From Candidatus Saccharimonadota bacterium (GTDB taxonomy: Bacteria > Patescibacteriota > Gracilibacteria > Absconditabacterales > Absconditicoccaceae), in contig OZ246420.1 in assembly GCA_965231145.1 (NCBI GenBank), forward strand, positions 180,001 through 212,000: 32,000 nt of DNA, written 5' to 3'. Under the pieces are notes generated by a model, which was not told where the DNA came from, did no database searches, and saw nothing but the letters and a program-made list of their open reading frames with translations. Made by a program: the position numbers and the translations under genes. Positions 1-32,000 of the stretch are shown piece after piece (positions within the stretch are counted from its first letter, which is position 1; every line of letters begins with the position of its first letter).

Positions 1-933
1 TTTTTGATGATAGTAGTCGTGTTGATCGTGTGATTTGTCTGGCAAGCAGCAAAGATGCTTATGCCAGAGTTCTTTTATAGTATAGGTTATGCACCGCTAG
101 GGGATTGGGTGTTTGGGCAAAATCCACCATTGTATTATCTTACCTGACCTGGATGATATGCAAGACTCAGTTGAATTTTCTCAGGACCAAATAACTATGG
201 TTATCTTATGGTTGCACTCTTCGGTTTTTGGTGGCGGTATCTTCGCACTCGTGTACAGCATAAAACAACTAAAACGCTCTTACGATTGCTTTTTGGACTT
301 TCTGTAGTTGGCACTCTTTCCAGAGGAGCTATCATATGAATATTTCTTCAGATTATAGCACTTTCATTTGTGTTATTGCATGCAAAGCGCAAGTATATCT
401 GGTCGCTTATAGTTGTTGCAATTCTTGCGGTGGGAGTATTGAGTATTGTGAAGCGATGATCGACGTTAGAGCATGTGCGTACAAAGTTTGGAAGTCTTTC
501 GTATGTGCGGTCAAATCCATGGGGCTATGGTCTTGGCTCGTCGGGTCCGAGCATCCATACATGACATGGCAATATACTTCCTGAAAATTTCTTTGTGCAG
601 ATCCTGATCGACATAGGTATCCCAGGTTTGCTCTTATGGTTATTCTTTTGGTACCTTGTCTTACATAGCATGCGATCTAATAGAGCAAAGGTGAAAGATG
701 AAAGAGCAAAGTTACATAAAGAAGAATTGTTGACTAGCAATCAGCAGACAAACCTATGAGATAACACTTTGTTAATATGTCTTTCATTTAGTTTTCTATG
801 ATTGCTTCTCGAGGGGATGTTCTTACATGTCTTTGAAGACAGTATGGTGAATTATTGGTTCTTTATACTATGGGGAATAGTGTACGGATACGTACAAAGA
901 AGTGAAAACTGAAAGAGTAGAGAGCAGAATTAA
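1..933 (+). CDS. O-antigen ligase / Wzy_C-like polytopic membrane protein (5' partial)
   Basis: Frame 1 is open from base 1 to TAA at 931-933 once 10 in-frame TGA codons are read as Gly. Motifs seen: ARLS-G-IFSGPNNYGYLMV, LSRGAIIG, WGYGLGSSGP...LPENFFVQILIDIGIPGLLLW. These are typical of the O-antigen ligase family. The product is very hydrophobic. Confidence 0.75.
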
Positions 934-983
934 ATACGGATGAGTAGTTGATAGCTTTCATCGTGTAATATAATTAATAAGAG

Positions 984-1013
984 AACTCTCAGGGTCACTG
1001 CTGAGAGTTTTTC
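984..1013. terminator. Hairpin between convergent genes (bidirectional terminator candidate)
   Basis: AACTCTCAG (984-992) pairs with CTGAGAGTT (1001-1009) across an 8-nt loop, followed by TTTT. It sits between the stop at 933 (+) and the stop at 1042 (-). Confidence 0.6.
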
Positions 1014-1041
1014 TATGATTAATTTTGCTCTTTTAATGTGT

Positions 1042-2103
1042 TTATTGTAATAAGACGAAGTTAGTAACAACGTATGCTGTTCCAATGATGATGATACCTA
1101 TGATAATATAGAGGAAATTTCTTTTGATCTTGTCGATTTGTTTTTCGTCGGTCGGGTTTCTGAGAAGGCTGATAGCCTCTATGATAATGAGTACGAGTAC
1201 GATAAATCCTACAAGTCCCATAACCCGGTTGAGCACAACATAGAGCCATGCAAACGATTTGTCTGCAAGCACGCCGCTGCCGATATCTGCAAGTGATGTG
1301 GCAAATGGATTTACCACTTCAGCTTCCTTTCCGTAAATAGTTTCTGCAAGAGATTTTGAAAAGATGATAGTCAATATACCGATGGTGTTCCATATGATGA
1401 TCGTTTTAGCATGGTCCTTTATCTTATCATCTGGACTCATCACAAATCTATACATATGAAGAAGGAGTATGAGGAAGAGTACTCCCATTACTAAGAACAT
1501 GATCATCTTGAGAAACGGAAATATGATCAGACTGTAGAGTTTCCATGCTGCTATATTTCCTTGAAAGAAGCCGTTGAAGTCGAGGACTCCTCATGCTCCG
1601 ATCAGTCTGCTTGCGATAAACGAAGCAGAAAGCATGATGATGATTCCTACGACGCCCCGAAGAAGATACGCAAATCATTTCTTTTGTGCGTCGTCTTTGT
1701 CGGCAGACATAATTTCGTAAAATCCTATGATTGCCATAAGTATCCCAACGATGATGAAAGCTGGGATGATAATCTTTTGTACTACCGCAATGATCGTATC
1801 TCTTGCGCCTTCAGCACCACCTCGTGCACCGGCGAAACCCGCGCCTTCAAGATGATTTTGGATAGGTAATGTGGTTTCTCTGATGGCTATATCAAAGCGA
1901 GAAAATAATAACGATCCTACTGTGGTTCCCATAAATGCGCCTATAACTCCTGCTCATCCACTACCTCCAAGAGCTCCAACAACACCCATGGGCGTGGTGG
2001 GTATTCCAGTAACTCCGAGACTTATCGCTGATGTAAACGAAAAACTAGTGAGCAAAGCTCAGAGTCAGATTCCATATGCTACTAGTTTTTTTAGAAAGTT
2101 CAT
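1042..2103 (-). CDS. Membrane protein with signal-peptide-like N-terminus and three tandem VirB2/TrbC-like pilin modules (hypothetical)
   Basis: ORFs 1042..1506 and 1675..1932 share a frame and join through TGA codons at 1591-1593, 1675-1677, 1954-1956, 2059-2061 and 2065-2067. The first ATG after an upstream TAG is at 2103, giving 353 aa. The N-terminus is MNFLKKLVAYGIGLGALLTSFSF. There are three helix / short polar loop / helix units: YEIMSADKDDAQKKGFAYLLRGVVGIII, YRFVMSPDDKIKDHAKTIIIWNTIGIL and SLLRNPTDEKQIDKIKRNFLYIIIGIII. The stop is TAA. Confidence 0.7.
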
Positions 2104-2165: not shown

Positions 2166-3158
2166 CTACTTGCTAGCTGCTACTTGCTTTTTTCCTCCAA
2201 GTAATGTGTAAAGAATAGGTATCTTTGGTAGTTTCCCCGAAGGAATAGTCATCAGTATCTTTCCGAGTAATAGTATCTGAGGAAGTAGTGCAAGATTGAG
2301 ACCGACAGTTGGGTTGCTACTGAGCCAGGTAACATAGCCTCGGTATCAGATCGCTCCAAGAGCGAGGAGATACTGCACGATAGTGCGCCAGTGTGATATG
2401 GGATCAAGCTGTGCATAGGTAGCTTTTCGTGATTCTATCTCTGTCGAGAGTGAAGAGTTTTTTTGAAATATCTTTTTAAGAAGATTTGTTATGAAGCCTA
2501 GTGGATACGCAATCAGTTCTTCAACGTTATGAGCAAAGAGATGGTTAAGTGCGTTCTTAGCAGGAAGAGAGATGAGGTCCATACCTACAACTACCATGAT
2601 CATCCTGGCTGCTATAAGAAATAGTCCGAGGAATATCATAGATGCTGATGGCCAGATACTAATGATGATAATGTAGAGAGACCGCCATAGGACACTTTCT
2701 TTGACCCATCGATAATTATGGTTGTCAAGCGTATCGTTGTACCACAGATAATAATTGTAGAGAGGCATGAAGTAACTTACGATTCAGAGATCATGGTTTA
2801 TAGTAAATTCTGAATTCTGAATTCTGGATTCTGGATTGTGTATTAAAGTTTTGTTATTGATGATAGCAAAAACTCCCATGATGATCATCAGGATGACAAT
2901 GCCGAGTAGTCCGTAGTTGATCCAATAGAGGATGGTGAGTGGAAACAAAAAACTATAGAATGCTCCTATGATGAGCGCAAGCCCTAAGACCGTCAAGATC
3001 CAATACCCATAGCGAATATAGCCTTTGACAAAAACTTCTTCTTCAGCTGGCACATCGATGCTTTTGTCCTTGAGCATAAATTGTACTGCAGGAGCAAGCA
3101 GCATGATGGCAGCCAGAGAGGCGAGGTTTTTGTCTGTAAAGCTTTGGTTGTTTGACAT
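2166..3158 (-). CDS. Multipass membrane protein, 330 aa (hypothetical)
   Basis: ORFs 2784..3158 and 2346..2768 share a frame. They are separated only by TGA at 2784-2786. A second TGA at 2346-2348 extends the frame to TAG at 2166-2168. There are several hydrophobic segments. It lies immediately downstream of the VirB4-like gene. Confidence 0.6.
2805..2839. repeat. Heptanucleotide tandem array (AAATTCT GAATTCT GAATTCT GGATTCT GGATTGT) inside a CDS
   Basis: Five consecutive 7-nt units read directly from the sequence. They lie just upstream of the TGA junction that fuses the two ORF halves of 2166..3158. Confidence 0.8.
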
Positions 3159-3229: not shown

Positions 3230-5284
3230 CTATTTAACGTCAGTTGTAATAAACTCTTTTTCCATGGGTGATGCTAAGATCTTAAGTGAGACGTGTTGGT
3301 TTCCTGCGAAGAGGACTCCTTCTCCGACTCCTGCTGCAACGAGCTTTTGTTTTTCTGCTTCAGATAATCCTACGATATTGTTAAGCTCTTTGATCGACGC
3401 TGTTGATTGTTTAAGGAGGATCTGCATAGCCGAGTTGGTGATGATTGGTTTTCCGTATTTCGATCTTGCGAAGTCTTCAATATCCTGTGTGATAGTGGTG
3501 ATACCGAGACCGTATTTTCTGGCTCTCTTTACCATACCATAGAGGAAGTTCGCGGAGATGTCATTTTGCATCATGATCCACGCCTCGTCGACTACGAGTA
3601 ATCTCTTTTCTTTTTTCGATCTTACTTTTGTCCAGATGAAGTTAAGGACGTTGTACATGGCTGGAGTTTTCAGTGCTTCATCCAAATCTCTGATAGAGAA
3701 GACGGTGAGCCCTGTGTTGAAGTCGACATTGGTATGGTTGTTGAAGAGCTTTCCAAATGTTCCTGTAACATATTTACTGAGTCTTACTGCGATACTATTT
3801 CCACCGTCTGTTCCTTCCAGAACGTGGAGCAGGTCTTCCATGATAGGTGGTTGTTTGTTTCCGTAACTCTCATCATCAAATGTGATTTCTTTGAGTGCAT
3901 ATGTTGATTGAAGTGCGCGGTCGAGCAACGCTTCTTCTTCTGACGTCAGTCCTCAGATCAATACAGAGATGAGTCCAATGAGACCCATGATCTGGGTTCT
4001 GAGTAGGTCTCCTTTCCCGTATTCAACATCTTCTACTCTTGGTGGAAGGTCGAAAGGATTTACATATTGCTGACTGTTAATAGCGATGTTTACATAGGTT
4101 CCGCCTACTTTGTCACAGAGCGCCTTATATTCGTTTTCGGGGTCGATTACAATGGTGGGAACTCAAAGGAGGAGGTATCTCATGATCTCCAGTTTCACAG
4201 TGAACGATTTACCGGCACCGGATGTCGCGAGTACGACGCTATTTGCATTGGTCATTTTCTTACCGAAACGGTCGAAGATAACGAGCGACCCTGTTTGCAT
4301 ATTTGCTCCGTAGAGAATTCCGGTTTTATCGATGAGGTCGTTTGAGATGAACGGGAAGCTTCCCGCAAGTGATGTCGTTACCATCGATCTTGTAATGCCG
4401 AGTTCATCGAGTCCAAGTGGCATTGTAGAGGTTAATCCTTCGTCCATTCTCTGGATGGCTGGTTTCATCCTGATACCATATCCTGCTATTTTCTGCTCGA
4501 GCTTCTTGCTTTCTTCATTGAGCTTTTCTTCGTTGCGCTCATAGAGCGATACATAACATGATGTCTCAAAATATCTTTCTTCGCGTGTCGCGAGTTTTTG
4601 TCTGATGTCTTCTACGTCACGATACTGGAGCTGAACTTCCGTATCGATGGTAATTCCTTTCGATGCTGATTCATTCATTTCAGCTCTGAGCTGTGTCGAG
4701 CGACGCTTGAGCATAGACTGAATATCACCGTCGTTTTCTGGATAGATAAACCATGACATATCCCACTTGTCGTAGAAGTTCATGAGATCTCTCGTCCACA
4801 GAAAATCGATATATGAAGGGTAGTTATGCGCGTAGTAAGTCTTCCCAAAAAGTCCTGAAGTATTTGTATACGATGGTTTTACCTCCCGGTAACTTGGTGC
4901 AATGTGCGACTTATAATCTGCAAGAGACGTCACGTACTCCTTTTCTACCTTCTGAATATGTCTTCTTAGATCTGACGTGAGGAGTTTGTCGCTGTACTGA
5001 TCATCCGGCAGTTCAATCATCCTCTTGATCTGCTCAGTGAGAGAGTCAGCCTTATGTGCCTCATCGATCTTCTTCTGTTCTTCTGCCTTTTCTGCTTCGC
5101 TCTTTTTCATCTTCTTTGGAGCGCCAAATATCCATGCGAAAAATTTATCAAAAAATGACTCCTTCTTTTTTGGAGTAGCTTCCGCTACCGCTTCTTTCGA
5201 AGCGATTTCTTTTTCGTCCACATACGGAAATCATCCCTGGGGGATAAACTGTGTGTAGTTTGTGTCGTATACAACGTTCAGCAT
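3230..5284 (-). CDS. virB4: VirB4/TrbE/ConE-like type IV secretion ATPase
   Basis: ORFs 3230..3928 and 4163..5221 share a frame and join through TGA at 3953-3955 and 4163-4165. Walker A is VLATSGAGKSFTVK. Walker B is RLLVVDEAWIMM. The motif VIDPENEY is also present. The start is set at ATG 5284 (one more TGA at 5231-5233), 27 nt downstream of a TTGCTG-N17-TATAAT promoter. The product is 684 aa and the stop is TAG. Confidence 0.9.
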
Positions 5285-5940: not shown

Positions 5941-7038
5941 ATGAGAACATTCACAGTTAAATACATTCAAAGACCTTTTATGAAGGTTGAAGACCATTAC
6001 AAACCGAAAAAATTTCTGCGTAGAATTGATTTCTGGAGCGGAAATGAACCTGAAAATCTCAATTTCCATTGGCAGAACATAAATGTAAAGCCTCAGGATG
6101 TAGCAGATTTTCAGCGGCTTCTCTCTGCTAAAATGGTAATAGAATTGCCAGAATCAATTACTATTCCTGAAGGTAAATGCTTGTGGCTCTATATGGACTC
6201 AGGTTTGTATATTGCTGATGCACAAACTCCTTTAGAAAGCGATATGCAGATGGTCGCAATGACCACAAAATGTTGGAATACTGTGCCTGGTAATAAGCCT
6301 TCTGAAGAAAGACAATATCAAGATATTCTTGTTATAAGATATCTTATGGTGCCTTTTGAGGGCTATCCTCAAAAAGAAGGAGAACTTCGGGCGATGACTA
6401 TCGTTACTACAACGCTCACTGAGGAGATTGATAATAACTATCGCTTCGGCCCAAAACAACAATATGTTCATCATCGTGAAGAGAAATGGAAACAATGGCT
6501 GGCGCAAGGCAGAATTATTGAATTGTCGAAACCATTGATCCATAACCCTGGTCCCTGGGATGTAAAAGGAAAAGATAATGGTCTGAGTTTCTGGACGGAT
6601 AGTACAAAAACCCATCATTATGGACCTGTTCCTAAAGAGGCAAAATGCTATTTTTATACCCATTTGCTTCTTAGGGGTGCTAAGCCGCAAGAGGGTGAAA
6701 TAGTTCGTTCTCAAGCATATTATGGAATGTACTATTTGCTCGATATAGACCTAACGGTTTATTCCGGATATCCCCCTAATGAAGACCAATTTCATGAATC
6801 TGCAGAAGCCATGGCTGTTATGGAACGAGAAAATAAGGTGGTAAAATTGCCGAATCCTTATCGAATTCCACCTAATAAGCAGCTCTGGATTTCTGCTCAA
6901 GGGAATATCTATATGGCGCATTCTCAAAAACCTAATGAGCATCCATATGAACTTGTCATGAATGCTCCTATTATTGCGACACTGCCGTGCGACAGGACGT
7001 CTCTTATAATGTATCATGACTTTGCTGTGACGGCCTAA
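5941..7038 (+). CDS. Hypothetical protein, 365 aa, with internal repeats
   Basis: Uninterrupted ORF with a TAA stop. The internal repeats are VIELPESITIPEGKCLWLYMDSGLYIADAQTP (6136-6231) and VVKLPNPYRIPPNKQLWISAQGNIYMAHSQKP (6838-6933). I recognise no family. Confidence 0.75.
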   Translation: MRTFTVKYIQRPFMKVEDHYKPKKFLRRIDFWSGNEPENLNFHWQNINVKPQDVADFQRLLSAKMVIELPESITIPEGKCLWLYMDSGLYIADAQTPLESDMQMVAMTTKCWNTVPGNKPSEERQYQDILVIRYLMVPFEGYPQKEGELRAMTIVTTTLTEEIDNNYRFGPKQQYVHHREEKWKQWLAQGRIIELSKPLIHNPGPWDVKGKDNGLSFWTDSTKTHHYGPVPKEAKCYFYTHLLLRGAKPQEGEIVRSQAYYGMYYLLDIDLTVYSGYPPNEDQFHESAEAMAVMERENKVVKLPNPYRIPPNKQLWISAQGNIYMAHSQKPNEHPYELVMNAPIIATLPCDRTSLIMYHDFAVTA

Positions 7039-7213: not shown

Positions 7214-7510
7214 ATGACAGTGAGCGACGAACAGTTAGACCATCTTGGTAAACTCGCTGCGCTTCGTCTGACAACAGATGAAAAGGTTAGACTCGGGAAG
7301 CAGGTGAGTACTATTATTGATTTTGTCGGAAAGCTTGATGAGGTAGATGTAGAAGGCACAGAGCCTCTCTCTCATCCTATCGAATGAAGAACGGTTCACC
7401 TTTATAAGGAAGGTGAAACCTACCCCGATCCAGATGGACTGCTTGCAAATACGAAGCACCAACTGAAAAATAGAGGGATAGTGATGAAATCTGCCATACA
7501 GGCGAGTTAA
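7214..7510 (+). CDS. gatC: Asp/Glu-tRNA(Asn/Gln) amidotransferase subunit C
   Basis: MTVSDEQLDHLGKLAALRLTTDEKVRLGKQVSTIIDFVGKLDEVDVEGTEPLSHPIE continues through TGA (7385-7387) as G-RTVHLYKEGETYPDPDGLLANTKHQ...SAIQAS to TAA at 7508-7510. Both the length and the motif order are GatC-like. Confidence 0.85.
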
Positions 7511-7624: not shown

Positions 7625-9730
7625 ATGGCAGAGTCTAAACCATTACATCTAGTCAGAAACGTTGGTATCATCGCGCATATTGACGCAGGAAAGACAACTA
7701 CAACAGAACGTATCCTTTACTATACAGGTAAGAACCACAAGATCGGTGAAGTACATGAAGGTGCTGCAACGATGGACTGGATGGAACAGGAGCAGGAAAG
7801 AGGTATTACTATTACTTCAGCTGCGACAACATGTTTCTGGAGAGATAACCAGATTAACATCATCGACACTCCAGGTCACGTGGACTTTACTATTGAAGTA
7901 GAGCGTTCTCTTCTCGTACTTGACGGTGCGGTATGTGTACTTTCTTCATCTGATGCGGTTCAGCCTCAGACTGAAACTGTATGGAGACAGGCTGACAAAT
8001 ACGAAGTTCCTCGTATGTGTTTCGTAAACAAGATCGACAAGATCGGTGCAGACTTCAAGATGTGTATTGATGATATTAAGGAAAGACTTTCTGGAAAGGC
8101 AGTAGCTATCCAGCTTCCATATGGTGAGTCGTCAGACTTCAAGGGTATCGTAAACCTCATTAACATGAAGTACTATACATTTGAAGGAGACAATGGTGAA
8201 AAGCAAGTAGAGCACGACATTCCAGAAGATTTCAGAGCTGAGTGTGAATCTCGCAGAGAAATGCTTCTCGATGCTGCATCATCGTTTGATGATGAGCTCG
8301 CTGATAAGTTCCTTGGTGGTGAAGAAGTATCTATTGAGCTTCTTAAGAAAGCTGTAAGAAAGGGTGTAGTTACAGGAGAAATGTATCCAGTACTCGTAGG
8401 TTCAGCACTCAGAAATGCAGGTGTTCAGCTTATGCTCGACGCTGTCGTAGATTTCCTTCCATCTCCACTCGACATTGGTAACGTTCACGGAACTGATCTC
8501 GATGATGCTGATAAGCACATGGAAAGAGAGCCAAAAGACGATGCTCCAACATCATCTCTTGCATTCAAGATTATGACTGACCCATTTGTAGGTACTCTTA
8601 CGTTCGTAAGAATTTACTCTGGAGTGGTAAGATCTGGTGATGCGCTTCTCAATACAAGAACAGGAAACAAAGAGCGTATCGGGCGTTTGCTCCTCATGCA
8701 TGCAAATAAGAGAGAAGAAATTTCAGAAATCCACGCAGGACATATTGCTGCCTTCCTCGGTCTTAAGGACGTGAAGACAGGAGATACGCTCTGTGATATT
8801 AAGGATCCTATCGTTCTTGAGCGTATGGAGTTCCCTGAGCCAGTTATCTCGATCGCTGTAGAACCAGCATCGAAGAAGGATCAGGAAAAAATGGGTGTCG
8901 GACTCGGAAAGCTTGCTTATGAAGATCCATCATTCCGTTTCTATACAGACGAAGAGACAGGACAGACTATTATTGCGGGTATGGGAGAACTCCATCTTGA
9001 AATTATTGTTGACCGTCTTAAGAGAGAGCACAAGGTAGAGGTAGTAACTGGTAAGCCACAGGTTGCATACAGAGAAGCTATTTCTCACAATGCAGATGGT
9101 GAAGGAAAGTTCGTTCGTCAGTCTGGAGGACGTGGACAATACGGTCACGTACTTATCCATCTTGAAAAGCTCGAAGAAGAAGGAAAGATCTACGAGTTCC
9201 GTGATGATGTATCTGGAGGTACGATTCCTAAGGAGTTCATCCCAGCTATCGATAAGGGTGCTCAGGAAGTTATCAAGCAAGGTCCTATCGCTGGTTACCC
9301 AGTGATTGGTGTAAGAGTTGCTCCATACGATGGTTCATACCACGATGTCGACTCTTCAGAAGTTGCCTTCAAGGTTGCGACATACAGAGCGTTCAAGGAC
9401 GCGTTCTCTAAGGCAGGAGCTATGCTTCTCGAGCCAGTGATGAATGTAGAGGTAGTTACACCAGATGAGTACATGGGTGATGTTATGGGAGACCTTTCAT
9501 CAAGAAGAGGACTTATCAGCGGACAGGATCAGAGAGGAAAAGCTATGATCATCAAAGCTAAGGTACCACTTTCAGAAATGTTCGGTTACTCAACTCAGGT
9601 TCGTTCTATGACTCAGGGTAGAGCATCTTACTCTATGGAGTTCGCTTCATACGAGAAGGTGCCAAACAACGTAGCTGACAAGATCATCGAAGAAAGAAAA
9701 GGAAAAGTGAAAGGACTCGATGACGAATAA
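7625..9730 (+). CDS. fusA: Translation elongation factor G
   Basis: 701-aa uninterrupted ORF with G-domain motifs [17 protein letters not shown] and NKIDK. It is EF-G-like along its full length. It has no in-frame TGA and ends in TAA. Confidence 0.97.
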
Positions 9731-10806: not shown

Positions 10807-11286
10807 ATGTATGTGCTACTCATGAATCATCTTTCGCCTAATGTACAAGTGATAAAAAATGCTCTTGATAAGAAATATGTAGCATGACAAACAGGGTGGC
10901 CATTTTCTGTAGTGGATACAGTGAAAACACTCATGCAAGCATTGGTTTTAGAGCCAAAGGAGAAGGATCAGGTTGTTGAAATAACTGCAGCGAAACTTCA
11001 TGAAATCTTATCAGCCGGAGTATATAATAAATGTTCTGCGATGCTAGGAAGTCTGGAGCTCTATAAGAATATAGCTGATAACAGGACGAAAACAGTAACA
11101 TTTATGGCTAACCATAAGCAGGAGCAAATCGATCTTATTCATGGGCAGCTCCTTGATTCTCCGAAAGATTATGAAGCTATGAAGTGTATGAATGATCATA
11201 TGGAAGATGTGCATAAGGATTTCCTTAACAAGCAACATAACCCAGAAAGAGATTGAGCAGATATAGTTCTTACAAGTGCCGCTTAA
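10807..11286 (+). CDS. Hypothetical protein, 159 aa
   Basis: ATG at 10807 is in frame with ORF 10912..11256. TGA at 10885-10887 and 11254-11256 are read through. The stop is TAA at 11284-11286. Confidence 0.6.
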
Positions 11287-13537: not shown

Positions 13538-13649
13538 TGATTATACCATATATAACTAAAGATAAATTACTTAATTCGTGTAAAACTGAAGACGTAAAAC
13601 CAAAAATAGTTTTGAAATTTTAGTTTTAGGTTTTTAGTTTGAGAGAGTA

Positions 13650-13723: not shown

Positions 13724-13729
13724 ATGGTT

Positions 13730-20242: not shown

Positions 20243-23200
20243 ATGGGAGAAAATGACAAATTAGAGTACGATAAAGAAGTAGAAGATCAGGATAAAAGTC
20301 CTGAACTTTCTGCTGATAATAAAAAAACTGAAAATTCAGAGATCAGAGAGCAGAGTGAAACTGAAAATTCAAAGAATAAAGAAGAGGCTGCTGCGAAAGA
20401 AAATACGGAAATTAGTTTGTCAGATCTTCAGAAAAAAATTGAAGTGATTAAAGCTTCTGATGATTATAGTAAAGAAGTCAAAGAAGAAGCTCAGAACATA
20501 GCCAATGAGCTCACTGGAAATCCCAATGCTGATCAAAAGGAACTTGCAGAAAAAGCTGCTAAGATAGCTGTTCTTGAACAAAAAGAGAAGTGATGGTTTC
20601 AGAGAAATAAAAAAGAAATTATAAAGTGGATAAAGGGTATTGCTACCATAATTGGTGGTAGTGTTTTGGCTGGACGAAATAAAATTAAGGATTTCTTCGG
20701 TTTTGGAGATGAAGAGAGTGATGCAGAACCAAAGAAAGAAGAAGAGAAGAAATGAGGAAAAGAGGAAGCTCCTTCTTCGCCTGACAATGAAAATTCAAAC
20801 ACTGATAATCCCGAAACACCGCCGGAGGCGGATGTCGGAGACATTGACGATGCTGCTACGCCACCGGAAGAAAAGAATGATGATGCGGAAAAAGAGCCTG
20901 AGATGAATAAAACTGATGTTAATCGTGAAGTGACAAATAGCCTGAAATCATTTAAGGAGACTGCTCAAGAAATTGATAGCAACTTCAGTATGTTTACGAA
21001 AAATGAGAAAGATATAGAGGAAGATGGTAAGAAGCTCAATGCTGCGTATCAGAAAGTTATGGATGAGCTCACAAGACTCAACCAGCTCTTTCCTGAAGAT
21101 GCAGAGATGCAGGAACTTTATAGGTCGACAATGTATTCGCTCGCTGAGTTTTATTCTGATAGGTCAGATGTGGATAATGATCACCATGAAGATTCTATTA
21201 AGGCTGTACAGCTTCTTACGCCACTCGTCAATAATATTAAAAATGAAAATGGAGAGCCTTCGAAGCTTCCTCCTATGCCGACACAGGATGATCTTATGAA
21301 GTCTATAGCGACAGAAAATCCTACACTTGCTGAGAGCATTGCGATAAAGATACAACAAGGTTTGAGTATGGAGCAGATTCTTGCTGATAAAGATACATTG
21401 AAACAATGGAATGAAGCATATAAAAAACTTTTTGATACGTGGGAAAAGGGATTTGATGGCGCTTTGACTCTCATGTATACGAAATATAAAGAAGGGAAGT
21501 ATCCAGATATTACGCCGATGCAGAAAAAAGCATTTGAGATGCTTAAAGATATCCAAGGAACCAATGATCGATGGGACTGGAAGGATAGAAATGTAAATAT
21601 GGCGACAAATATCGCAGGAAGTGTAACGGCTATTACGGCTGGTATCGCAGTAACTATACTTACTGCTGGTCTTGGAACAGGGGCTGGTGTAGCTATTGCA
21701 TCTGTGGGAGCTGGAGCATTGACCACAACAGTTGGTATGTGGGTAAATGAAAATAAGTTGATGGGAGGATGAGATCTTGCCCTCGATTTTGCTCTCAATG
21801 CTATACCATTTGGTCTTGGTAAAACATTTGCGTATCTGAGAGATGGAGCAAAAGTTGCAACGAAAGCTGCGAAGTTCATCATGGCTTCAAGTTATCTTGC
21901 AGAATGAGCGCTTGATGTAACAATTACGAGCTGATGACAAACACTGAAGACGGGTGAGTCTTTTGGCCAAGCTTTGCAGGACAATCTTGCATGGGCTATT
22001 TTCCCGCTCGTGCTTCATCAGAGTAGCGCAGCGATGAAATATCTTAAGAACTCTCCAAAGCTGCAAGCTATTTTTGCAAGAAAAGATCTTGCAGATGAAA
22101 CATTGAATGACATTAATAAAGCAAAGATACTTGCACAACTTGGTAAGAAACAATTATCGCAAGAAATTTTGGATAAGCTCAATGCTAAGCTTACGAAACT
22201 TAAACGAAGTGAAACGATTAAACTGCTTGATGAAGAAGCGGCGCTTGTGGCAAAGAAAGAAAGTATGATTAAAGATATTAAGAGTTACATCGATGAAAAT
22301 GTTGTCCTTAATAGTAAGGCTAACATAACGCCTATTAAAAATGGTGCGATGGATAATTTCATGAAAGTCGGTGATAAGATGGTTGTAGAGAGTTCTAATG
22401 GTACGAGAAAGCAGATTACGCTTTTGAAGTTCAATGGTAAGAACTCGCTGGTAAGCATCGATGGAGGTCGTCCAGTAAAAGCCAATCTTGCGGGAGGAAA
22501 ACTGCATATTACTGACCCTATTTTCAAAGGTGAAACTATTACAGGTTCGTTTCTGGCGAAACATCCAAACGTAAGTGGAAAAAATATCACTGCTATGGTG
22601 TGAGAACTTGAATCTGTTAAGGTAGATATGCGCAGTCTGAAGTCTTTGGGTCTAAGCTTTAAGGCGTTTGGAATAGAAATGAGAGATCTTTCTGCTGTCT
22701 ATCCTCAGCTCAAGAGAGATATAAAAAATCTTAAGGTTGGTGAAAGCATCGATGATTTCCTTGGCTATAAAGTAACAAGGACCGATAAGGGTTTTGAGGC
22801 GGTAGACAAGAGTTGACACTCTGCGTCTGCAGCAAATAGTGACGTTCTGTTGAACCATATTTTGCCGAGCGCCGAAGCAAATGGAGAGAGAATTCTTGGT
22901 TATAAACTTGCACATTTCTATAGAAATAATCTGACGCCTGAAACTATTCAAGCTATCTTGCAAAAGAATATGTTGGGAAGATGACTTGGGAAGGTGAAGA
23001 AGCTTGTCGGTGGTAAAGGAGCTAGTGCATATGAAGTAAATGTAGATGGCGTAAAATACCAAGTGAAGTTTGATAAGAGTGTGCCGGAAGGTATCGTGTT
23101 TGCAGATGAAGCGGGTAAGGCTATCGCTGCAAATAGTCCTATAGTTCGTCAACTTGAGTCAAAGGTTTTTGTGAAGATGAGCGAGAAGTACAAAGCATTT

Positions 23201-23617
23201 GGTATCCACTGTAAAGATATACAGACTCCGTTAGGAAAACTTATACCAGAGCGTATGAAGCTGAAGATGTTTAAGACGATAGCTGATAAACTTCATAAGC
23301 CTCTTACAGTCATTGAAAATATGACTGTCGGTCAGGTCATTGAATCATTTCAGCAGTTCGCTGATGCGCCAACTTTTGCAAATTTTGTAAGAGCGCTTTC
23401 GGGAGGAGGAGGTCTCAATACGATGCTTTTGACATGAGTTATCATGATCGATGCAACGCAAAATAGACTTGATGAGATTGGAACAGATTATATAAAATAT
23501 GTATTGGGCGGAACGCTTATGCCGCTTGTCGATATTGTACAATCATATGGTGAAAGGAAATTAGAAGAGCATAAAGCGAACAATACTCAATGAGAAAATT
23601 TTAGTACAGAAACATAA
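20243..23617 (+). CDS. Giant hypothetical membrane-anchored protein, 1124 aa
   Basis: Fragments 20243.., 20903.., 21974.., 22628.. and 22994.. share one frame and join through 11 TGA codons, including the tandem TGA-TGA at 21932-21937. The stop is TAA at 23615-23617. The N-terminus is acidic and low-complexity. Hydrophobic segments are WIKGIATIIGGSVLAG and the Gly/Ala-rich NIAGSVTAITAGIAVTILTAGLGTGAGVAIASVGAGALTTTVGMWV. Confidence 0.8.
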
Positions 23618-23628: not shown

Positions 23629-24681
23629 ATGGGTGAGATAAAAGATAGATATGAGACAGTCTATGAAAACCAGGATGCTGATACACAGCAGAAACTTTCT
23701 CAGTTGCAGGAAAGTATCAAAAGCCATGTAGAATCGGCACCATTGCAAATGTTAGAAAATAGTGTTATGGGTAAGGATAAGTGAAAGAAGCAGCTTAATA
23801 TAGCAGAGCTTATAAGTGCTGGTTATGGAAATAGAATATCAAGAGATGTGATCATGAGATACCTCACTGGTAGCAAAAATGAAAAGACCACGTTTTTTGG
23901 TAAGGCATGGCAGATGCTTGGTGACAAGTTTGTAGATCAGATCGTTAAACAGGATAACAGTTATGATTCGGTGCTTATAGTCCACGAAAAGATCATTATA
24001 CAAAAATTTCAGGCAGAGCTAAGCACCCTTAAAAGCTCTATAGTTGTTCCTACAGATGCAACATCTAAGCCTAATAATGCTCCAACTTCTGCTCCTGAGC
24101 AGACAAATGAAGGATATGCAAAAGAGTCTCATTATACGGAAGATGAAAAAACGCAGATTAATGAGGTGATATCTTCTGCAAAGAAGTTTGAAGGTGCACA
24201 ATATAAGTATGGTTGAACTAGTAAAAGTGGCATAGACTGTTCAGGCTTATGGTCTATGGCATTTAAAGAACAATATAAAGACGAATGACAAAATTTTGGT
24301 CGTTTAACTGCTGCGCTCTTTGATGCGAAAGCGCCTGATATTGCATCTAAGGATGTCGAGAGAGGAGACTGGATGTTTTGGGAAGATCCGAATGGAATCA
24401 AGAAAGGATGAAATAATGAAAAAGGAGAAAAGATTTATCACATTGAGATGGCACTTTGAAAACCCTTTGAAAAGGATGGAAAATGGTATGTAAAAACATA
24501 TGGTTCATCTAGTGATGAAAATATGACTGATGCAAATGGTAATCGTTTGAATAATGGGAAAAGTGGTGTGGGATATAGAATAAGAGAGATCAAAGATAAT
24601 CACCACTTTGCAAAGCCGCCGTATTATGCAAAACTTGTGGCGATGAATGATAATAATGATGTAAAGAAAAACGCAGCATAA
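23629..24681 (+). CDS. NlpC/P60-family peptidoglycan endopeptidase, 350 aa
   Basis: ATG at 23629 is in frame with ORF 23848..24216. Five TGA codons are read through. The C-terminal domain is YKYG-G-TSKSGIDCSGLWSMAF ... GDWMFWED ... IYHIEMAL. It carries the catalytic Cys and His, and the TGA at 24214-24216 supplies the conserved second Gly of the YxxGG motif. The stop is TAA at 24679-24681. Confidence 0.85.
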
Positions 24682-24705: not shown

Positions 24706-27700
24706 ATGAGCATTGATCCAATTGAGACGCTCCATAAGGTAGTGGATAAGACAAAAGAGGATAAGAAATATGACGAGAAGATTGTCTTGCAGGAGACGAA
24801 TCAGAAGTTGTTGAATCTCAAAGAAGATGTCTCATATGCGACAGTAGTTTTAGAGCAACTAAAGAAGACTAATTGGGTTGATGAGCAAAAGTTTCAAGCT
24901 CTTGAGGCGAAGCTTCGTAATGACGATACGAAACAAGAGGCTATTCAAGAGATAGCACGTATCATTGAAGATATCAATGCAAGATATGAAAACTTGCATG
25001 CAGATGAAAAAGAGAAAGTAAGAAAGATGACTGAAGCTCTCCATGAGACTAATAAGTCTATCTCTGCACTAAAAAAAGAGGTCATGGAAAATCCAAATTA
25101 TGAAGCGATAGAGAAGGAACTTGTGGATGAAGCAATGAAGAAACTGGATGAGCATCGATATACGAGATGGCTCAAGGAACCATATAAGAAATATATTCAC
25201 GAACAGATAGAAGAGATGAAGTCGTGAAAAAAAACAGAAGAAAAAAAGTGATGGAAGAAGTTTGTAGATTGATTGAGCAAGTGGTTTTTTGGACTTGTAG
25301 GAGCTATGTTTATCGGAAAAAGTATAACTGATCTGGTTGCTGATAAGCTTAAGGTTGCTAAAGATAAGATAAAGGAAGGAGGAAAGAAAATTGTCGATAA
25401 AGCGAAAGAGAAGATACAAGATATTAAAGACAAAGGAAAAGAAGTCGTGCCAACGACGTCAAGAACTCCTGAGGAACTCAAGGAAGATGAGGCAAAGGCG
25501 AAGCGTTATATTAAAGAATTCACTAAGAAGTATGCTCATAAAGAGTTAACTGATGAACAATTGGAAAGGATTTCAAAGAAAATGAATTTGCCTGAAAAAT
25601 TAAGAGAAGGTACAAGTCAGTGGCGTGAGATCATAAAGGATAATCAGGGTAATTATTTACGTGCAACAGTACAGACTGCCATGCTTCCTGGTACGATAGG
25701 ATGGGAACTTATGGAGGCGTTGCAGGAAGAAGGTATTATAGATATGAAGGAAATAGGTCTTAATATCGTATGAAATACTGTTGAATATGGCTTTAAATGA
25801 TTTGAATTGTTTGGCGCTGGTCTTGCAACGATCTGTGGCAAGATGGATCTCAAAGAACTCAATGGACATATCGCACACTTATATGAGAAATCTCCAACTG
25901 CCGCGAAGCAGATACTTTTCACGCTGATCTATAGAAGTATGGACGGACCACTTATGAAGATGGTTCTCAATACTGGTGCATTTATGGCAAAAGCAGTTAT
26001 CTGGCCGCTCTTCGAAGCGAAAGGAGATCTATGACTCGTGAAAAACATGACTCAGGATGCTTTGAAGTGAAATATGAATACGGCAATTCAGGATATGAAG
26101 CAAACAAAAGAGCTTTTAAAAAAGTGTAATGTGTCTGATCCATTTCTCAGTGAACTTATGACGGAAATAGAGAAGGCTGCAACACAAGCAGAGCTTTATA
26201 ATAATATTGTCGTAGAAGCACAGTGAGTTGCTGATAGTGCGAATTATATGAGTGAACTGAAGAAAAAGTTTCGTGCAGGAAGCAAGGAGGCTAGTTTTCT
26301 TACGGTGTATGAAAATTCTCTTAAGAAAGCTACCAAGAATGTTGTTATAAATAAGGCAAGATTCCTTGATAATATATGAGCTCAATGGTCAAAAGATACG
26401 AAAATCATGGAAACAACCCTCAGGTCATTAAATGCAAAATGGTGAATTGAATTTAAAAACTGGGGAGCAAAGATGTTCCTTGGTGAAAGCTCTGTTCGTC
26501 ATCTGATGATTAATTTTGCGAATAATATCGAAGCACAAGGAAAAGTAGCTCATGAGATGCTTGCAAATAGAAATCTTTTCGATCAGATATCCCATAAGAT
26601 GTACCTCAAGAAGGTTCGTGCGATGGGTGAAATTATGCATGGAAATGAGCTGAAAGATAAAGCAGTTTGGAAGTTCAATACTGTCGAGGAGCTTTCTGAT
26701 TTTACGGAAAATGCGAAACTCCTTGCAAGAAAGGCGCCGTCAACGCTGAAATTTCTCCTTGGAAAGTCGCCGATCTTTATTGTTGGAGGACTCGCTATGG
26801 GTGAGGGTGATACTATAAGTGAAAAGATGCATGGACTCTATGAAGGCATAATGGGTCTCGTGCCTATTGTTGGGCCACTTCTTCTTCTCGATGACGCCCT
26901 ATGGGCATGAGAACGTACTAATTTATGACAAGCAGCCGTTGGTGGTGTACTTTTAGGTGTGGATGTTGTACATATCATTAAAGCATTTAAATGAGCGGAG
27001 ACAACGACGAAACTTATCCATATGTTTACCCAGCCGGTCGTGGACATGATCGAGATCGGAAAGTTTCTGAGAAATTCAGGAAAAAATAGTATCAAGATGG
27101 TTCTCGATGGTGCAAAGCTTATTCGTGAAGGAAAGACTATTGGTATGCGGGAAAAACTCCTTGCAACGCTCAAGGGTACTCCAAAGAAGAAGTGGGCGAT
27201 CATGGCTGCTGTTGCTGCATTTGGGGGTCGGGCTATAGCAGAAATGATGCCTGATGGTATCGACAAAGAAGCAGAAGTATTATTTACTAAATATAAAGAC
27301 GATCCAGCAGGGCTTGATAGAGCACTTGCCGAGAGCTGGCCAACGCTCGATCAGGATACGAAAAATGAATGCCTGAAGTATGCACTTATTGCTAAGCTTG
27401 GTATCAGTCCGGAACATGCCGATGGGCTTATTGTGGAATATAGAGAATGAGCTTATCATGTCAGCCTGCCGATCATGATTCAGAAAGAATATGGAAACGC
27501 GATGCTTGCATCGCTGAAGGATAGTATCGCCAGGGTTGAGCCTGATGCCAAGATTGAAATGAACGTGAGAGGAGTGGTTGCCTACAACTTTAGGAAACAA
27601 CTCGAGGAGAAGTTAAAAGCTCAAGGTGAGAAGCCAGAAAACATCGCGTGAATCATAGATAAACAGTTAGAAGCTATGGGGTATAATCCTAATATAGGAA

Positions 27701-27714
27701 AACAAACCACTTAA
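24706..27714 (+). CDS. Polytopic membrane protein, 1002 aa, with N-terminal coiled coil (ConG/VirB6-like role is inference only)
   Basis: Fragments 24697.., 25273.., 25807.., 26473.. and 27022.. share one frame and join through about 15 TGA codons. The stop is TAA at 27712-27714. There are at least 6-7 hydrophobic segments, for example WFFGLVGAMFIG, FELFGAGLATICG, SPIFIVGGLAMG, IMGLVPIVGPLLLL, AAVGGVLLGVDVV and WAIMAAVAAFGG. Confidence 0.8.
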
Positions 27715-27869: not shown

Positions 27870-27968
27870 AGTAAAAAGAGTATTTTATACGTGTATGTAT
27901 GAACAATGGCAAGAACTGCTCCAAATCAGGCCTTACAGTGAATAGAAAGGTCTAAGGAACTCCTGGAT

Positions 27969-30900
27969 ATGAATAACTCTGCTGTCTCTCTTGCGAAAGA
28001 CCAGACTTTCTCATTGCTTATGGCAGGCAATGGTAGTTTTGTCATGAGAGATCATGTTGCTACAGTGCTTCATACCTATGCAACAAGAAGAAGAGCAAAT
28101 ATTGCAGATTTTGGATATACATGGAAGAAACTGACACAGCAGTTGAGTATTAAGGATCAAATTGCCTTCGTTGCGGGAATAACACACGCTCATGATATGG
28201 GAACTACTGCCGCTGCGTCTAAAAATACTATCGATGACGCCGCCCTTACGCAGTCTCTTAATATGCTTATAGAAACTCTTCGTAAAGATCTTATCGAAAA
28301 AGAAAATTTCACTGAGTCTTGGATTATTCGCCATGCAGCATTCAATAACTTTGAAGCGAAGCTTTCTGTTCCAGAACAAAAAACGCTTTCTGCTATTTCA
28401 GAGAAAATGAAAAAACTTGCTGAAACAAGTGATCTACAGCAACTTGCTGACGCCATGCATTTTCAGAAAGAGTCTGATGCGCAGCAGATCGTAAAGATCG
28501 AAGAAGCTATGGCTATCTGTGCAGAACAGGGAATCGATGTCGATGCAAAACTAATCGAGCAATTTGATGTGCTTAAGCAGAAAATTAAACCCATTAGGGA
28601 TCTTGATAAGCACTATAAGCATCTTATGAACACGCTTAATATGGTTCATAGAAATGCAAAGACAGGAATCACTGCTATGGTTACACCTTCGCAGAAGGCT
28701 AAATTGATTAAAGTGTTAGAAGACCTTGGTACAAATGAACAAGCATATATTTTTGATGCAATCGGACAGTCAGAAAATCCTAAGATGCTTGATAGTGAGC
28801 TGCTTACTCTTAAGAAAGATAGTAGAAAATTTGCTGAAGTACTTCGTTCAAACAATATGACAGCAAGAGAGTTTGAAACTCACTTCCTTTCGTATTTCAC
28901 ATTTGTAAATGCTGAAAAAGCAAGAACTGACTTTAATCAGCAGAAAGTAGACACATTTGGTACAAGAATTAAGGCATATGAGACTGATGTGAACGCATGG
29001 AGAGGGCTTGCAAGAGAGAAGATATTTGCGCTTCACGCTAACATGCGTCTTTCCGGAGGAATCATGACTTTTGGTTCAGAAGATGATTATAATATTGCAA
29101 ATAGTTATTTTGAAAAGTTCAAAGATATTTTCTTCGCAGATGAAAGCGATGCAATAGGACCAGATGGAGGACACTACAGACAGATGAGAGATGTTGTTGC
29201 CGCTATTATTAGAAGAAGAATCCCTGCTCTTGGTGCTCCTGGTCAGAGAAGATTTGGAGTTGCTCTTCGTAGAATTATCGCAAGAATGAATGACCCTAGG
29301 CTTTTGAAAGGCTTGGAGCGTTGGTATAAACAGGCTGATGACGCTGAGCTTTTGTCCATGATTATCATGGCTCAAAACGAGTCGACAAATATGATGTTTT
29401 ATAACGACAAAAATCCTTTTGTGAGTACAGAAGGAAGAATGCACAGACTCGCAAAAAATGTAAGTAATGCGGAACTCTGAAGAGAAGCAGTAAGAGATGT
29501 GATCTCAAAGCCTGCGAATACTTTCCTTCGTCTCAGTGAAAGCGCATTGAAAGGAGGTCTCAAGGGTGCAAACAAGGTCTTTTCAAAAACAGGTAGATTT
29601 GCAACATGGGCAACAAGCGGTGTTTTGGGCCCTCTCAATAGAGCAATCGAAGGTAAAAAGGGGAAATGGTATATGATTCCTGGATATGCAGCGTGGCTTG
29701 TGACTCGTCCTATAGAAGAAATTGCAAAACAAGGAAATAGAATTCTTAACTATACTGATGCTGAGGGTAACAAAGCTATCGACAATGCTCAGGCAAACAC
29801 TGTTGCTATGTTGAGAAAGTGATTCAACGATCAGAACATTAACAATGTCTACGAAGGCTTTACACATGCTTTTGAAGGCGTTGCTAGTTTCCTTGGTAAG
29901 ACAACATCTCGCATTGGTCAGGCTGGATACGATAAGATAGATACTAAAAAGAAGAGAGATGTTCTAGGTGCGTTTTTTGAAGCTGCTCAGAAAGAAGAAA
30001 GTCTTACCGAACTTATGCAATCATCAGACCTTGCAAATATGCTCAATCTGAAGGAGAGATGACCTTATATCTTCGATGAAGATGGAAGAGTAACCACGGT
30101 AAATAAGGTTTCAACGAAGAAAGAATATGCAGAAGATGCAGCAGGCGCTCAAGAATATATGAAAGATCAGAGTAAGAAGATGCTTGAAGATATAGATGCT
30201 TCATTTAAGGAATATGCAAGTAGAATAGAAGCCAGCTATGAAGCTAATCAAGATGCGCTTTCTGGCATGACTCCTGCAGATGCAGACTATAACAAAGTGC
30301 AGAAGGAGATCGCGAATATTGCTGTTCGTCAACAGACGCTTGCTGGTAAGCAGACTATTACCAATGAGATGCTCACTGCTATGCAGGCATTTCTACGTAA
30401 TGCAGATGCAAATGCGTTTAATACTGAAATAAAGCGTATTCATGCCGCCATAAGAAAAGAAAAGGAAAAAAGCGATAAGGCTATTTCTGATGCTCAAAAA
30501 ATTATTAAGGCACAAGAAACAATAAAAGCAACATCGAAAAAATCTCTTGATGAAGTAAATGCTAAGCTTGCAAAGCTCAATCCTACCGATAAGGGCTATG
30601 CTACATTAACTGCTGAAAGACTTACTGCGGAGACAGAGAGAAATAATACAAGAGCAGTTTTGAGAAATGCTGAAGATGCGATCCTAACAAGTGTTTCAGC
30701 AAAACAAAAACTTGAAAGAAAGAGAGATAGCAAAGAACAAGAAGTGAAAGAGTTAAAGAAGAAGGCGGAAAGAAAGATAGAGTACAATGATGTTATGGAT
30801 AAGTTAAGTGAGATTGATAAGGATTTGGCTAAGAAAAGAGCAGAACTTGCTAATGTGAGATCTGCAGAAAGAAATGACAATGCAGGATATAATAACAATA

Positions 30901-31592
30901 AAAATAAGGGTAAAAATCAAACTTCTCCAGAAGTTGCTACTCTTACCAAGGCTATCAATGATCTCGAAGCGCAAGAGAGAAGACTACAAAATATCGCATA
31001 CAATGGACTAGCTATCGCAGATGCAGATTATGAAACAGATCTCAAGGCTGCGCAAATAGAGCTCACTGATTTTGAAGATCAAATCACTGACAATGAAACT
31101 CAGCATAAGCAACTCATTAAAGATAAAGATGCTGCTCAGGATGCCTACGACAAAGCTGTTCAGGAACTTGCGAAGATAGATGCTCAGCTTACATCGAAGA
31201 TGTCAGGAGACAAGGGCTATGCAGAACTTATTGCAGATAGAGCTATCCATGAAGCTGCAATTTCTACTGCAGATGCTACTATCTCTACTCAGCAAAAAAT
31301 TATAGACAAAGAAGCTCAGGCTTGAGTAGTTCATTCTGACTTCTATAGAATGTCTACCAGAATGGAAGGATTTGCAAAGAATGCAAAACACAATGTAGAT
31401 ACCAATCTTATTGCAGATCCAGCAACATATATGAAAGAAATCCAAAAACTTCTCGCTGATTTCAATGGTTACATTATTAGTAAGAAGGCAGCTTGATCAT
31501 CAACAGATAAGATTGATCGTATTAAAGCGATTGTTAGCAGAACAGATATAGATGAACAGGTAAAGGCAGATCTTATAGCCAATCTGAAATAA
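27969..31592 (+). CDS. Giant hypothetical coiled-coil protein, 1207 aa (alternative in-frame start ATG 27906)
   Basis: Fragments 27969.., 29499.. and 30159.. share one frame and join through TGA at 29478, 29820, 30060, 31323 and 31494. The stop is TAA at 31590-31592. The C-terminal half is K/E/A/Q-rich with heptad character and repeated DKGYA-x-L and ADADY motifs. Confidence 0.8.
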
Positions 31593-31619
31593 TACATTTA
31601 CTTATCTTTCCATAAGACT

Positions 31620-32000
31620 ATGTCTCTTTGGCGTCGTAATACTACACCACCAGCACTTCCATGAGGAACTCCTAACGGACCTTCTAGAGGAAGACAAGCC
31701 CGAAATAACGTAAAAATGAAAACATCCAATGCTATTGGATCTGTTTTCAATGCTGGGAAAAAAGCTGGGAAAGCAGTTGTGCAGACGGGAAAAGATGTTG
31801 GTAATCGAACAGGAGAAAAATTGACAGATTATAAAAATAAAGATAAAACACGAACTAATGAAGAGCTTGACGCGTATTTGCAGGCTCAGCGTTTAATTAT
31901 AGAAACATATCCTCAGCATGTTACCTTTGAACCTCTCAGATCTCATGGCGTGCTTCAAGGATTTGAATCCAATCAACTTCCTTACAGTTTGCATATTGTT
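31620..32000 (+). CDS. Hypothetical protein (3' partial; runs off the window)
   Basis: From ATG at 31620 the frame stays open to the window edge, with one TGA at 31662-31664. The sequence is MSLWRRNTTPPALP-G-GTPNGPSRGRQARNN... It is absent from the ORF track because of the early TGA and the missing stop. Confidence 0.55.

Follow-up and report, generated by a model that had tools for sequence, protein, structure and literature searches.

Gene content of the window

The window analysed here is a 32-kb stretch of contig OZ246420.1 (assembly GCA_965231145.1) with a G+C content of 39.8%, and its curated gene set comprises 22 coding sequences (CDS) amounting to ~9,740 codons. The question addressed is which genetic code these genes use. 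The initial annotation had proposed that TGA is a glycine codon throughout and had assigned the DNA to genetic code 25; the present analysis concerns TGA together with CGA and CGG, two codons that table 25 assigns to arginine. In-frame TGA occurs 80 times, across 19 of the 22 CDS, while the coding sequences contain 20 CGA and 12 CGG codons (~21 and ~12 per 10,000 codons). The features are listed below with coordinates, strand, length in amino acids (aa) and the positions or numbers of these codons.

1..933, plus strand: O-antigen-ligase-like polytopic membrane protein, partial (5' end cut by the window); TGA at 31, 145, 154, 172, 337, 457, 562, 757, 799 and 910; three CGA, two CGG.
1042..2103, minus strand: membrane protein resembling type IV secretion system (T4SS) pilins, 353 aa; PF18895 T4SS_pilin, 31.9 bits; TGA at 2065, 2059, 1954, 1675 and 1591; CGG at 1657 and 1225; CGA at 1822.
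2166..3158, minus strand: membrane protein, 330 aa, no Pfam match; TGA at 2784 and 2346; CGA at 2709, 2427 and 2340; CGG at 2682.
3230..5284, minus strand: VirB4-like conjugal-transfer-type ATPase, 684 aa; PDB 4ag5, E=2e-49; TGA at 5231, 4163 and 3953; CGG at 4886.
5941..7038, plus strand: hypothetical CDS, 365 aa, no Pfam match; no TGA; two CGA, two CGG.
7214..7510, plus strand: gatC, 98 aa; PF02686 GatC, 39.9 bits; TGA at 7385.
7625..9730, plus strand: fusA, encoding elongation factor G (EF-G), 701 aa; no TGA, CGA or CGG.
9863..10729, plus strand: class I methyltransferase-like CDS, 288 aa; Methyltransf_25 just under the cut-off; TGA at 9911, 10394, 10562, 10625, 10658 and 10703.
10807..11286, plus strand: hypothetical CDS, 159 aa; TGA at 10885 and 11254, both facing non-glycine codons.
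11340..11924, minus strand: membrane protein, 194 aa; no TGA; CGA at 11514.
11964..12422, minus strand: Bcp-type peroxiredoxin, 152 aa; AhpC-TSA, 95.6 bits; TGA at 12003.
12512..12922, minus strand: small membrane protein, 136 aa; TGA at 12593, opposite GGC/GGC/GGA in relatives.
12951..13247, minus strand: rpsP, ribosomal protein S16, 98 aa; no TGA.
13358..13537, minus strand: rpmG, ribosomal protein L33, 59 aa; TGA at 13514-13516, opposite GGA in the L33 gene of related locus L083.
13649..13815, minus strand: tRNA-Met(CAT) at 13649-13724 and tRNA-Ser(GCT) at 13729-13815 (ARAGORN, Rfam), the sole tRNA genes of the window.
14050..14607, plus strand: hypothetical CDS, 185 aa; TGA at 14068, 14071, 14170 and 14308.
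14629..15423, plus strand: ABC transporter ATPase, 264 aa; ABC_tran at residues 23-183; TGA at 15058.
15620..20221, plus strand: giant lineage-specific protein, 1533 aa, no Pfam match; three ~140-aa repeats; TGA at 16118, 18470, 18968, 19496 and 20201.
20243..23617, plus strand: giant lineage-specific protein, 1124 aa; 11 in-frame TGA.
23629..24681, plus strand: NlpC/P60 cell-wall hydrolase, 350 aa; NLPC_P60, 27 bits; TGA at 23782, 24214, 24286, 24409 and 24457.
24706..27714, plus strand: giant lineage-specific protein, 1002 aa; 15 in-frame TGA; a faint sub-threshold T4SS Pfam match only.
27906..31592, plus strand: giant coiled-coil-rich protein, 1228 aa; six in-frame TGA.
31620..32000, plus strand: partial CDS (3' end cut by the window); TGA at 31662; three CGA.

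The CDS devoid of TGA are those for EF-G, S16, the 194-aa membrane protein and the 365-aa hypothetical protein. In the gatC region, an antisense open reading frame (ORF) at 7235-7555 on the minus strand was considered as a gene and rejected as an artefact; the true gatC is the plus-strand gene at 7214-7510, and an orthologue of gatC lies upstream of the EF-G gene in three related loci (L083, L086 and L089).

TGA is a sense codon

Our results clearly show that TGA does not terminate the genes of the window. Among the 21 CDS that end within it, 17 stop at TAA, four at TAG and none at TGA, as the initial annotation had stated, and all the TGAs that it singled out fall in frame within a long ORF (172, 10394, 15058, 19496 and 24214 on the plus strand; 4163 and 12003 on the minus strand). 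The comparison of ORFs that it had suggested, carried out on greedy non-overlapping stop-to-stop ORFs of at least 80 aa, points in the same direction: with the standard bacterial stops, 40 ORFs cover 78.6% of the window, whereas with TGA as a sense codon 24 ORFs cover 97.1%. When TAG or TAA is made sense instead of TGA, the cover reaches only 83-86%. The gain in cover obtained with TGA (+0.185) compares with values of -0.06 to +0.07 in control loci with GC <0.45, a range that takes in at least one locus possibly not using code 11.

The ORFs obtained with code 11 adjoin each other in the same frame across single TGA codons, as in the ABC ATPase gene (14608-15060 and 15061-15423) and in the gene for the 1533-aa protein (16121-18472, 18473-18970, 18971-19498 and 19499-20203). 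The Pfam ABC_tran domain, spanning residues 23-183, runs over the TGA at residue 144 of the ABC ATPase; a stop at this codon (15058) would remove both the signature and the Walker B motifs, which lie downstream. Likewise, the alignment of the VirB4 ATPase domain with PDB 4ag5 passes two TGAs, L33 would be truncated after 7 residues if its TGA were a terminator, and the protein sequence is conserved in relatives on either side of the TGAs. A public assembly has code-11 gene calls on the same contig, and these are visibly broken, with an ABC_tran piece of 143 aa, an AhpC-TSA piece of 139 aa and a methyltransferase piece of 153 aa. The claim that every large gene would appear fragmented under code 11 holds for the 19 genes that are broken, but not in its literal form, as the 701-aa EF-G contains no TGA. 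UGA is, in consequence, a sense codon, and UAA and UAG are the sole terminators of the genes of the window.

In four genes a TGA lies within the last 6-9 codons, with TAA or TAG soon after (sites 910, 20201, 23591 and 10703). These late TGAs could be relics of old UGA stops; four such sites against ~2 expected is not a significant excess.

TGA is read as glycine

The meaning of TGA was addressed by comparing orthologous codons in the DNA of relatives, with TGA, CGA and CGG masked as X during alignment and with curated frames. Six independent relatives were used: (A) the metagenome-assembled genome (MAG) GCA_017992195.1, (B) DRR438495_113620, (C) SRR24908179_25635, (D) Ca. Absconditicoccus praedator, (E) SR1 RAAC1 and (F) a 'Gracilibacteria bacterium' MAG. 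Two other approaches were discarded. A codon pass over all six frames aligned conserved DNA in wrong frames and produced spurious pairs of TGA with CGA, AGA or TGT. The residues that database proteins carry at TGA columns, in turn, are a mixture of G and W without meaning, reflecting mixed translation tables; such a comparison is circular because the identical VirB4 is stored with W while its relatives are stored with G, the latter derived either from table 25 or from true GGN codons.

A partner codon was found in the six relatives for 67 TGA sites of the window, and the partner was itself TGA 25 times. The 102 unambiguous partners comprise Gly 64 times, Ser 8, Asp 5, Ala 5, Lys 5 and Trp 0. 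Expressed as log-likelihoods, with substitution frequencies estimated from those same alignments, glycine scores -169.5 and the next best amino acid, serine, -315.5, a margin of 146 nats; in a test with three relatives, the excess of glycine over its 6.4% background gives a binomial p of 1.5e-46. The relation also holds in the reverse direction, the TGA codons of the relatives being predominantly opposite GGN in the window (for example, 102 of 138 in A. praedator).

A metagenome scan for VirB4 added 80 further loci, 66 of them with in-frame TGA and 14 without, the latter serving as a standard-code outgroup. At the window TGA sites, the 66 recoded loci have TGA 106 times, Gly 95 times and Trp 0 times, and the outgroup has Gly at 27 of 29 positions (14/14 at 3953 and 13/14 at 4163). 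In line with this, VirB4 representatives of 50%-identity clusters, all <50% identical to the query, have Gly in 118 of 137 and 77 of 136 cases at the two TGA sites that can be aligned, and never Trp, though the query itself carried W. Among PDB homologues, Gly is found at 4 of the 5 TGA sites that can be aligned with significant matches.

At the level of single sites, the initial annotation had placed TGAs at positions where protein families conserve glycine, and this was borne out in several genes. In the NlpC/P60 hydrolase, TGA 24214 aligns with the second Gly of the YxxGG motif in LytE, CD1368 and Spr (PDB), and 4 of the 5 TGAs of the gene are opposite GGN in L088. Near the C-terminus of Bcp, TGA 12003 corresponds to the Gly of a conserved 'GH' in PDB 5enu, 5iph, 5iiz and 3gkk and is matched by GGA/GGC/GGA in relatives. 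At TGA 15058 of the ABC ATPase, ABCA7 and ABCA4 have Gly, ABCA3 has Leu, and the codons opposite in relatives are GGC and GGT; VirB4 TGA 4163 is opposite Gly in PDB 4ag5, in agreement with the outgroup; at VirB4 TGA 3953 the same structure has Arg. In the 330-aa membrane protein, TGA 2346 faces GGC/GGC/GGA.

Three other sites were only partly corroborated. TGA 172, attributed to a Wzy_C motif, is opposite GGT in 3 of 3 close relatives, and most other TGAs of that CDS are opposite GGN or TGA; the Wzy_C match itself is sub-threshold (23.9 bits against a cut-off of 31.7) and, extending over residues 96-214, misses residue 58, where this TGA lies. For the methyltransferase LxxGG motif, TGA 10394 is in frame, and the motif is plausible only: Methyltransf_25 scores 25.8 against 27 bits and ends at residue 177, one before the TGA, and a PDB search with this protein gave no significant match. 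Finally, the repeat said to run across TGA 19496 does continue ~45 residues beyond it, and the L088 orthologue of the 1533-aa protein also has TGA at this position, but the paralogous repeats have Lys opposite, which gives no support for Gly.

Several observations weigh against reading every TGA as a conserved glycine. About one third of the window TGA sites are opposite non-Gly in relatives; 2784 is opposite Ser (TCA/TCA/TCG), and 1591, 10885 and 21770 are variable. Gly accounts for 63% of partners at TGA sites against ~78% at GGN sites, and the counts from the individual relatives are not phylogenetically independent. Nevertheless, by the standards of comparative sequence analysis, the assignment of UGA to glycine made in the initial annotation is established, and tryptophan is excluded.

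UGA accounts for 80 of ~660 glycine codons (12%), which makes it a regular if somewhat infrequent member of the glycine set here. The genes for EF-G and S16 are free of TGA, CGA and CGG, and that for L33 has one TGA, at codon 8. The absence of reassigned codons from the EF-G and S16 genes fits the avoidance of rare reassigned codons in highly expressed genes.

CGG, and probably CGA, as tryptophan codons

The same alignments indicate that the code of the window probably departs from table 25 in one further respect. The unambiguous partners of window CGG in the six relatives are Trp in 13 of 20 cases and Arg in none, and those of window CGA are Trp in 5 of 22 and Arg in 1 of 22; conversely, the partners of window TGG are TGG 118 times, CGG 32 times and CGA 22 times. 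By comparison, for the control codons CGT, CGC, AGA and AGG, Arg makes up ~59-68% of partners and is the best fit. The log-likelihood margin in favour of Trp is 47 nats for CGG and 17 nats for CGA. A scan over all codons flagged TGA, CGA and CGG, which are genuine, and also AGA and ATG, whose flags are an artefact of dropping identical partners where one codon is dominant or sole.

Two CGG codons illustrate the pattern. The one at 4886 in VirB4 is opposite TGG in relative A (L083), A. praedator and SR1 RAAC1, and the standard-code outgroup loci carry Phe, Met, Val or Leu there. The one at 1225 in the pilin-like gene is opposite TGG in relatives C, D, E and F, and in metagenome loci it is matched by Trp 17 times, CGA 10, CGG 3 and Tyr 4. 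Over the 66 recoded loci, the window CGG sites have Trp 67 times, CGA 34, Phe 24, Tyr 16, CGG 11 and Arg 0.

CGA is less uniform. Its sites fall into three kinds: Trp-like (673, 2340, 2709, 21569 and 25156), Arg-like or polar (2427 and 6862) and, for the rest, unconserved. The CGA sites are matched by Leu, Ile, Glu or Arg in distant metagenome loci and never by Trp; CGA 2427 is opposite Arg 9 times in such loci, and CGA 6862 is opposite AGG (Arg) in L087. These findings count against a tryptophan assignment for CGA, and the Arg-like sites 2427 and 6862 speak for plain table 25, under which UGA would be glycine while CGA and CGG would still mean arginine. Table 25 is moreover the annotated code for the clade, and several CGA codons stand within Lys/Arg-rich contexts. 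Against it are the near absence of Arg opposite either codon, where true Arg codons have ~59-68%, the 54 instances of window TGG opposite CGG or CGA, the restriction of the CGG sites in the recoded loci to Trp, Phe or Tyr among amino acids, and the outgroup residues at the VirB4 CGG site, none of which is Arg. We consider plain table 25 quite improbable for this genome. As judged from orthologous codons, CGG is read as tryptophan with high likelihood, and CGA probably is too; if both are, they contribute 32 of ~141 tryptophan codons. The designation as code 25 stands as regards UGA as glycine; as a description of the whole code, table 25 is probably inexact.

The mixed behaviour of CGA would also be compatible with an intermediate or ambiguous stage of sense-codon reassignment, with a tRNA pool of mixed outcome or with old Arg-CGA codons still being purged. 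We regard this as unlikely, though, if so, the change of meaning of a sense codon could be observed directly in a living bacterium.

The window is part of a chromosome

The best named relatives of the window VirB4 are a 'Patescibacteria group bacterium' (81% identity), followed by Absconditabacterales, Vampirococcus lugosii, Absconditicoccus praedator and SR1 RAAC1 (63-66%) and one 'Gracilibacteria' (63%). Gene order is shared with the complete A. praedator chromosome (CP054059.1) for the giant protein, the ABC ATPase, tRNA-Ser/tRNA-Met, L33, S16, EF-G, GatC, VirB4, the membrane protein and the pilin-like protein. Since VirB4 relatives and gene order match, the window is placed on a chromosome and in the known clade with UGA as glycine, which in GTDB corresponds to class JAEDAM01 with the orders Absconditabacterales and BD1-5 (PMC13092985, gTranslate preprint). 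The idea that code 25 fixes the taxonomic neighbourhood agrees with both lines of evidence. A scan of contigs for EF-G, by comparison, was uninformative for taxonomy, its best matches being ~60% identical and scattered over many phyla. The nearest public genome is the unclassified 'Patescibacteria group bacterium' MAG GCA_017992195.1, whose EF-G is 95% identical.

Five of the metagenome VirB4 loci (L158, L159, L161, L162 and L165) are 44-46% identical to the window VirB4 and have 3-10 in-frame TGA. As the 14 VirB4 loci without TGA are equally distant, the boundary of recoding is not a simple function of VirB4 similarity.

A conserved neighbourhood flanks the housekeeping genes on both sides (1042-5284 and 15620-31592 in the window; 1-3892 and 10001-14112 in L089). 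It comprises the VirB4-like ATPase, the 330-aa membrane protein, the T4SS-pilin-like protein, the NlpC/P60 hydrolase and four giant lineage-specific proteins (1533, 1124, 1002 and 1228 aa). Around VirB4, Ca. A. praedator and dozens of metagenome loci share the same gene order, and the gene for the 330-aa membrane protein adjoins VirB4 in all relatives. These contents could suggest a conjugative element, and hence that the window derives from a recoded phage or mobile element instead of the host chromosome. This explanation is very improbable: the cluster is split in two by the genes for EF-G, GatC, S16, L33 and Bcp and by tRNA genes, the complete A. praedator chromosome and other relatives have the same order, and VirB4 is present in 66 recoded metagenome loci. 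To judge from its genes and their conserved order, the cluster looks like a chromosomal, clade-wide, type-IV-secretion-like apparatus and not like a mobile element.

Taken together, these results make it very likely that the window comes from the chromosome of an uncultured bacterium of the Patescibacteria clade in which UGA encodes glycine (Absconditabacteria/SR1 and 'Gracilibacteria'/BD1-5, class JAEDAM01), with a gene order closest to Absconditabacterales, and that it is translated with UGA as glycine, CGG as tryptophan and CGA probably as tryptophan.

Some features of the neighbourhood deserve separate mention. The pair formed by tRNA-Ser(GCT) and tRNA-Met(CAT) keeps its position and order beside L33-S16 in relatives out to A. 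praedator (1678-1860 in L083, 4232-4400 in L086, 5454-5622 in L089 and 60-360 in L111). The ~140-aa repeat of the 1533-aa protein occurs three times, at 17603-18043, 19205-19645 and 19805-20218, with ~29% mutual identity and with the motifs ANLTNF..HYKG and TAVDG.D...S..K.IGGS.FE.Q..Y..WLN; a blastp self-comparison of this protein detected no repeat. For the 1124-aa protein, one homologue only (P0121, 54% identity) was found among the best 8000 word-sharing candidates of 5.8 billion proteins. No orthologue of the methyltransferase-like CDS (9863..10729) was present among the related loci retrieved, and the 365-aa ORF at 5941-7038 has an orthologue in L087 only (49% identity) among the loci examined. 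In this ORF ~3 TGA would be expected and none is present; the gene could be a recent acquisition whose CGA and CGG codons date from a standard-code donor.

Other readings of UGA

Translation with table 4, in which UGA is tryptophan as in Mycoplasmatales and several insect endosymbionts, has evidently been applied to this DNA by at least one pipeline, as the public protein entry of the same VirB4 (P0001, corresponding to 3230-5284 on the minus strand) carries Trp in place of each of its three UGAs, with Arg at CGG 4886. This reading is extremely improbable. Opposite window TGA, TGG was found 0 times in 102 close-relative, ~200 recoded metagenome and 29 outgroup comparisons, Trp lies ~350 nats below Gly in the three-relative test, and with TGA as Trp the tryptophan content would nearly double, to 2.0%.

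That UGA is still a stop, the in-frame TGAs reflecting pseudogenes, assembly or frameshift artefacts, selenocysteine or programmed readthrough, is a formal possibility that apart from the fragmentary code-11 gene calls has nothing in its favour and is next to nil, given 80 in-frame TGAs in 19 of 22 genes with conserved flanks, the exchange of TGA and GGN between lineages, truncations that would deprive the ABC ATPase of its signature and Walker B motifs and cut short the VirB4 ATPase and L33, and partner residues that are Gly and only once Cys, as selenocysteine would not predict. Rfam returned tRNAs only, no search aimed at selenocysteine insertion sequence (SECIS) elements having been made.

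Decoding machinery

In this clade, UGA is reported to be glycine with a tRNA-Gly(UCA) and without release factor 2 (RF2), and CGA and CGG are predicted to be tryptophan in Absconditabacteria (PMC8629427, PMC13092985, PMC8080830, gTranslate preprint). By analogy with this published work, UGA would be read in the present organism by a tRNA-Gly with anticodon UCA; RF2 would have been lost, leaving release factor 1 (RF1) for UAA and UAG; and CGA and CGG would be read by tRNA(UCG) and tRNA(CCG) of tryptophan identity. No tRNA with anticodon UCA, UCG or CCG is present in the window or in the ~70 related loci scanned. A tRNA(UCA) of glycine identity is recognizable by G1:C72, C2:G71, G3:C70 and U73, and a tRNA(UCG) or tRNA(CCG) of tryptophan identity by G73 and the lack of A20, A20 being a mark of arginine identity.

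The release-factor gene found in SR1 RAAC1 (L090 18488-19564, CP006913.1) is of the RF1 type, with the PAT tripeptide. It has an in-frame TGA at the second Gly of the GGQ motif and another within the RPAAGGDEA motif, so that UGA as glycine is illustrated in the very family that reads stop codons.

Consequences for annotation

The choice of translation table has direct consequences for this contig. Table 11 breaks 19 of the 22 genes, table 4 puts Trp in place of Gly, and table 25 probably mistranslates ~32 codons, giving Arg for Trp. The public records contain more than one of these: the VirB4 entry follows table 4, while other genes of the same contig in the public calls (L001) follow table 11 and are fragments. 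With tables mixed in this manner, database residues at these codons are unreliable for the clade.

Hundreds of genomes have by now documented UGA as glycine in the clade, where it has been known since 2013 (PMC8629427, gTranslate preprint); it is already-known biology and not surprising here. As for CGA and CGG as tryptophan, the literature consulted has computational prediction only, with mention in two papers, and no proteomic check. The present analysis makes a modest addition, namely independent support from orthologous codons for CGG, and likely CGA, as tryptophan, and it points to concrete codons for a check at the peptide level, VirB4 4886 and pilin-like 1225.

Comparison with known genetic codes

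Table 25 is the Candidate Division SR1 and Gracilibacteria code (Campbell et al. 2013, Rinke et al. 2013, as cited in PMC8629427, gTranslate preprint). The window resembles it in that UGA is glycine, UAA and UAG are the only stops, the clade is the same, the G+C content is moderate to low and UGA is rare among glycine codons. It differs in that CGG, and probably CGA, which are arginine in table 25, behave as tryptophan.

A closer match is the code predicted by Codetta for Absconditabacteria, which combines UGA as glycine with CGA and CGG as tryptophan (Shulgina and Eddy 2021, PMC8629427). The window shows each of these three deviations, and in it CGA and CGG are rare and interchange with TGG. 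Unlike the Codetta prediction, which is based on Pfam columns and tRNA identity elements, the evidence from the window consists of orthologous codons only, and the signal for CGA is weaker than that for CGG. Table 4, used by Mycoplasmatales, Hodgkinia, Zinderia and others, also gives UGA an amino-acid meaning, with RF2 presumed lost, but the codon means tryptophan there and glycine in the window. Finally, the genomes of A. praedator, Vampirococcus lugosii and SR1 RAAC1 have the same codon reassignment as the window, while in sequence the window stands well apart from them, with VirB4 61-65% and EF-G 62% identical.

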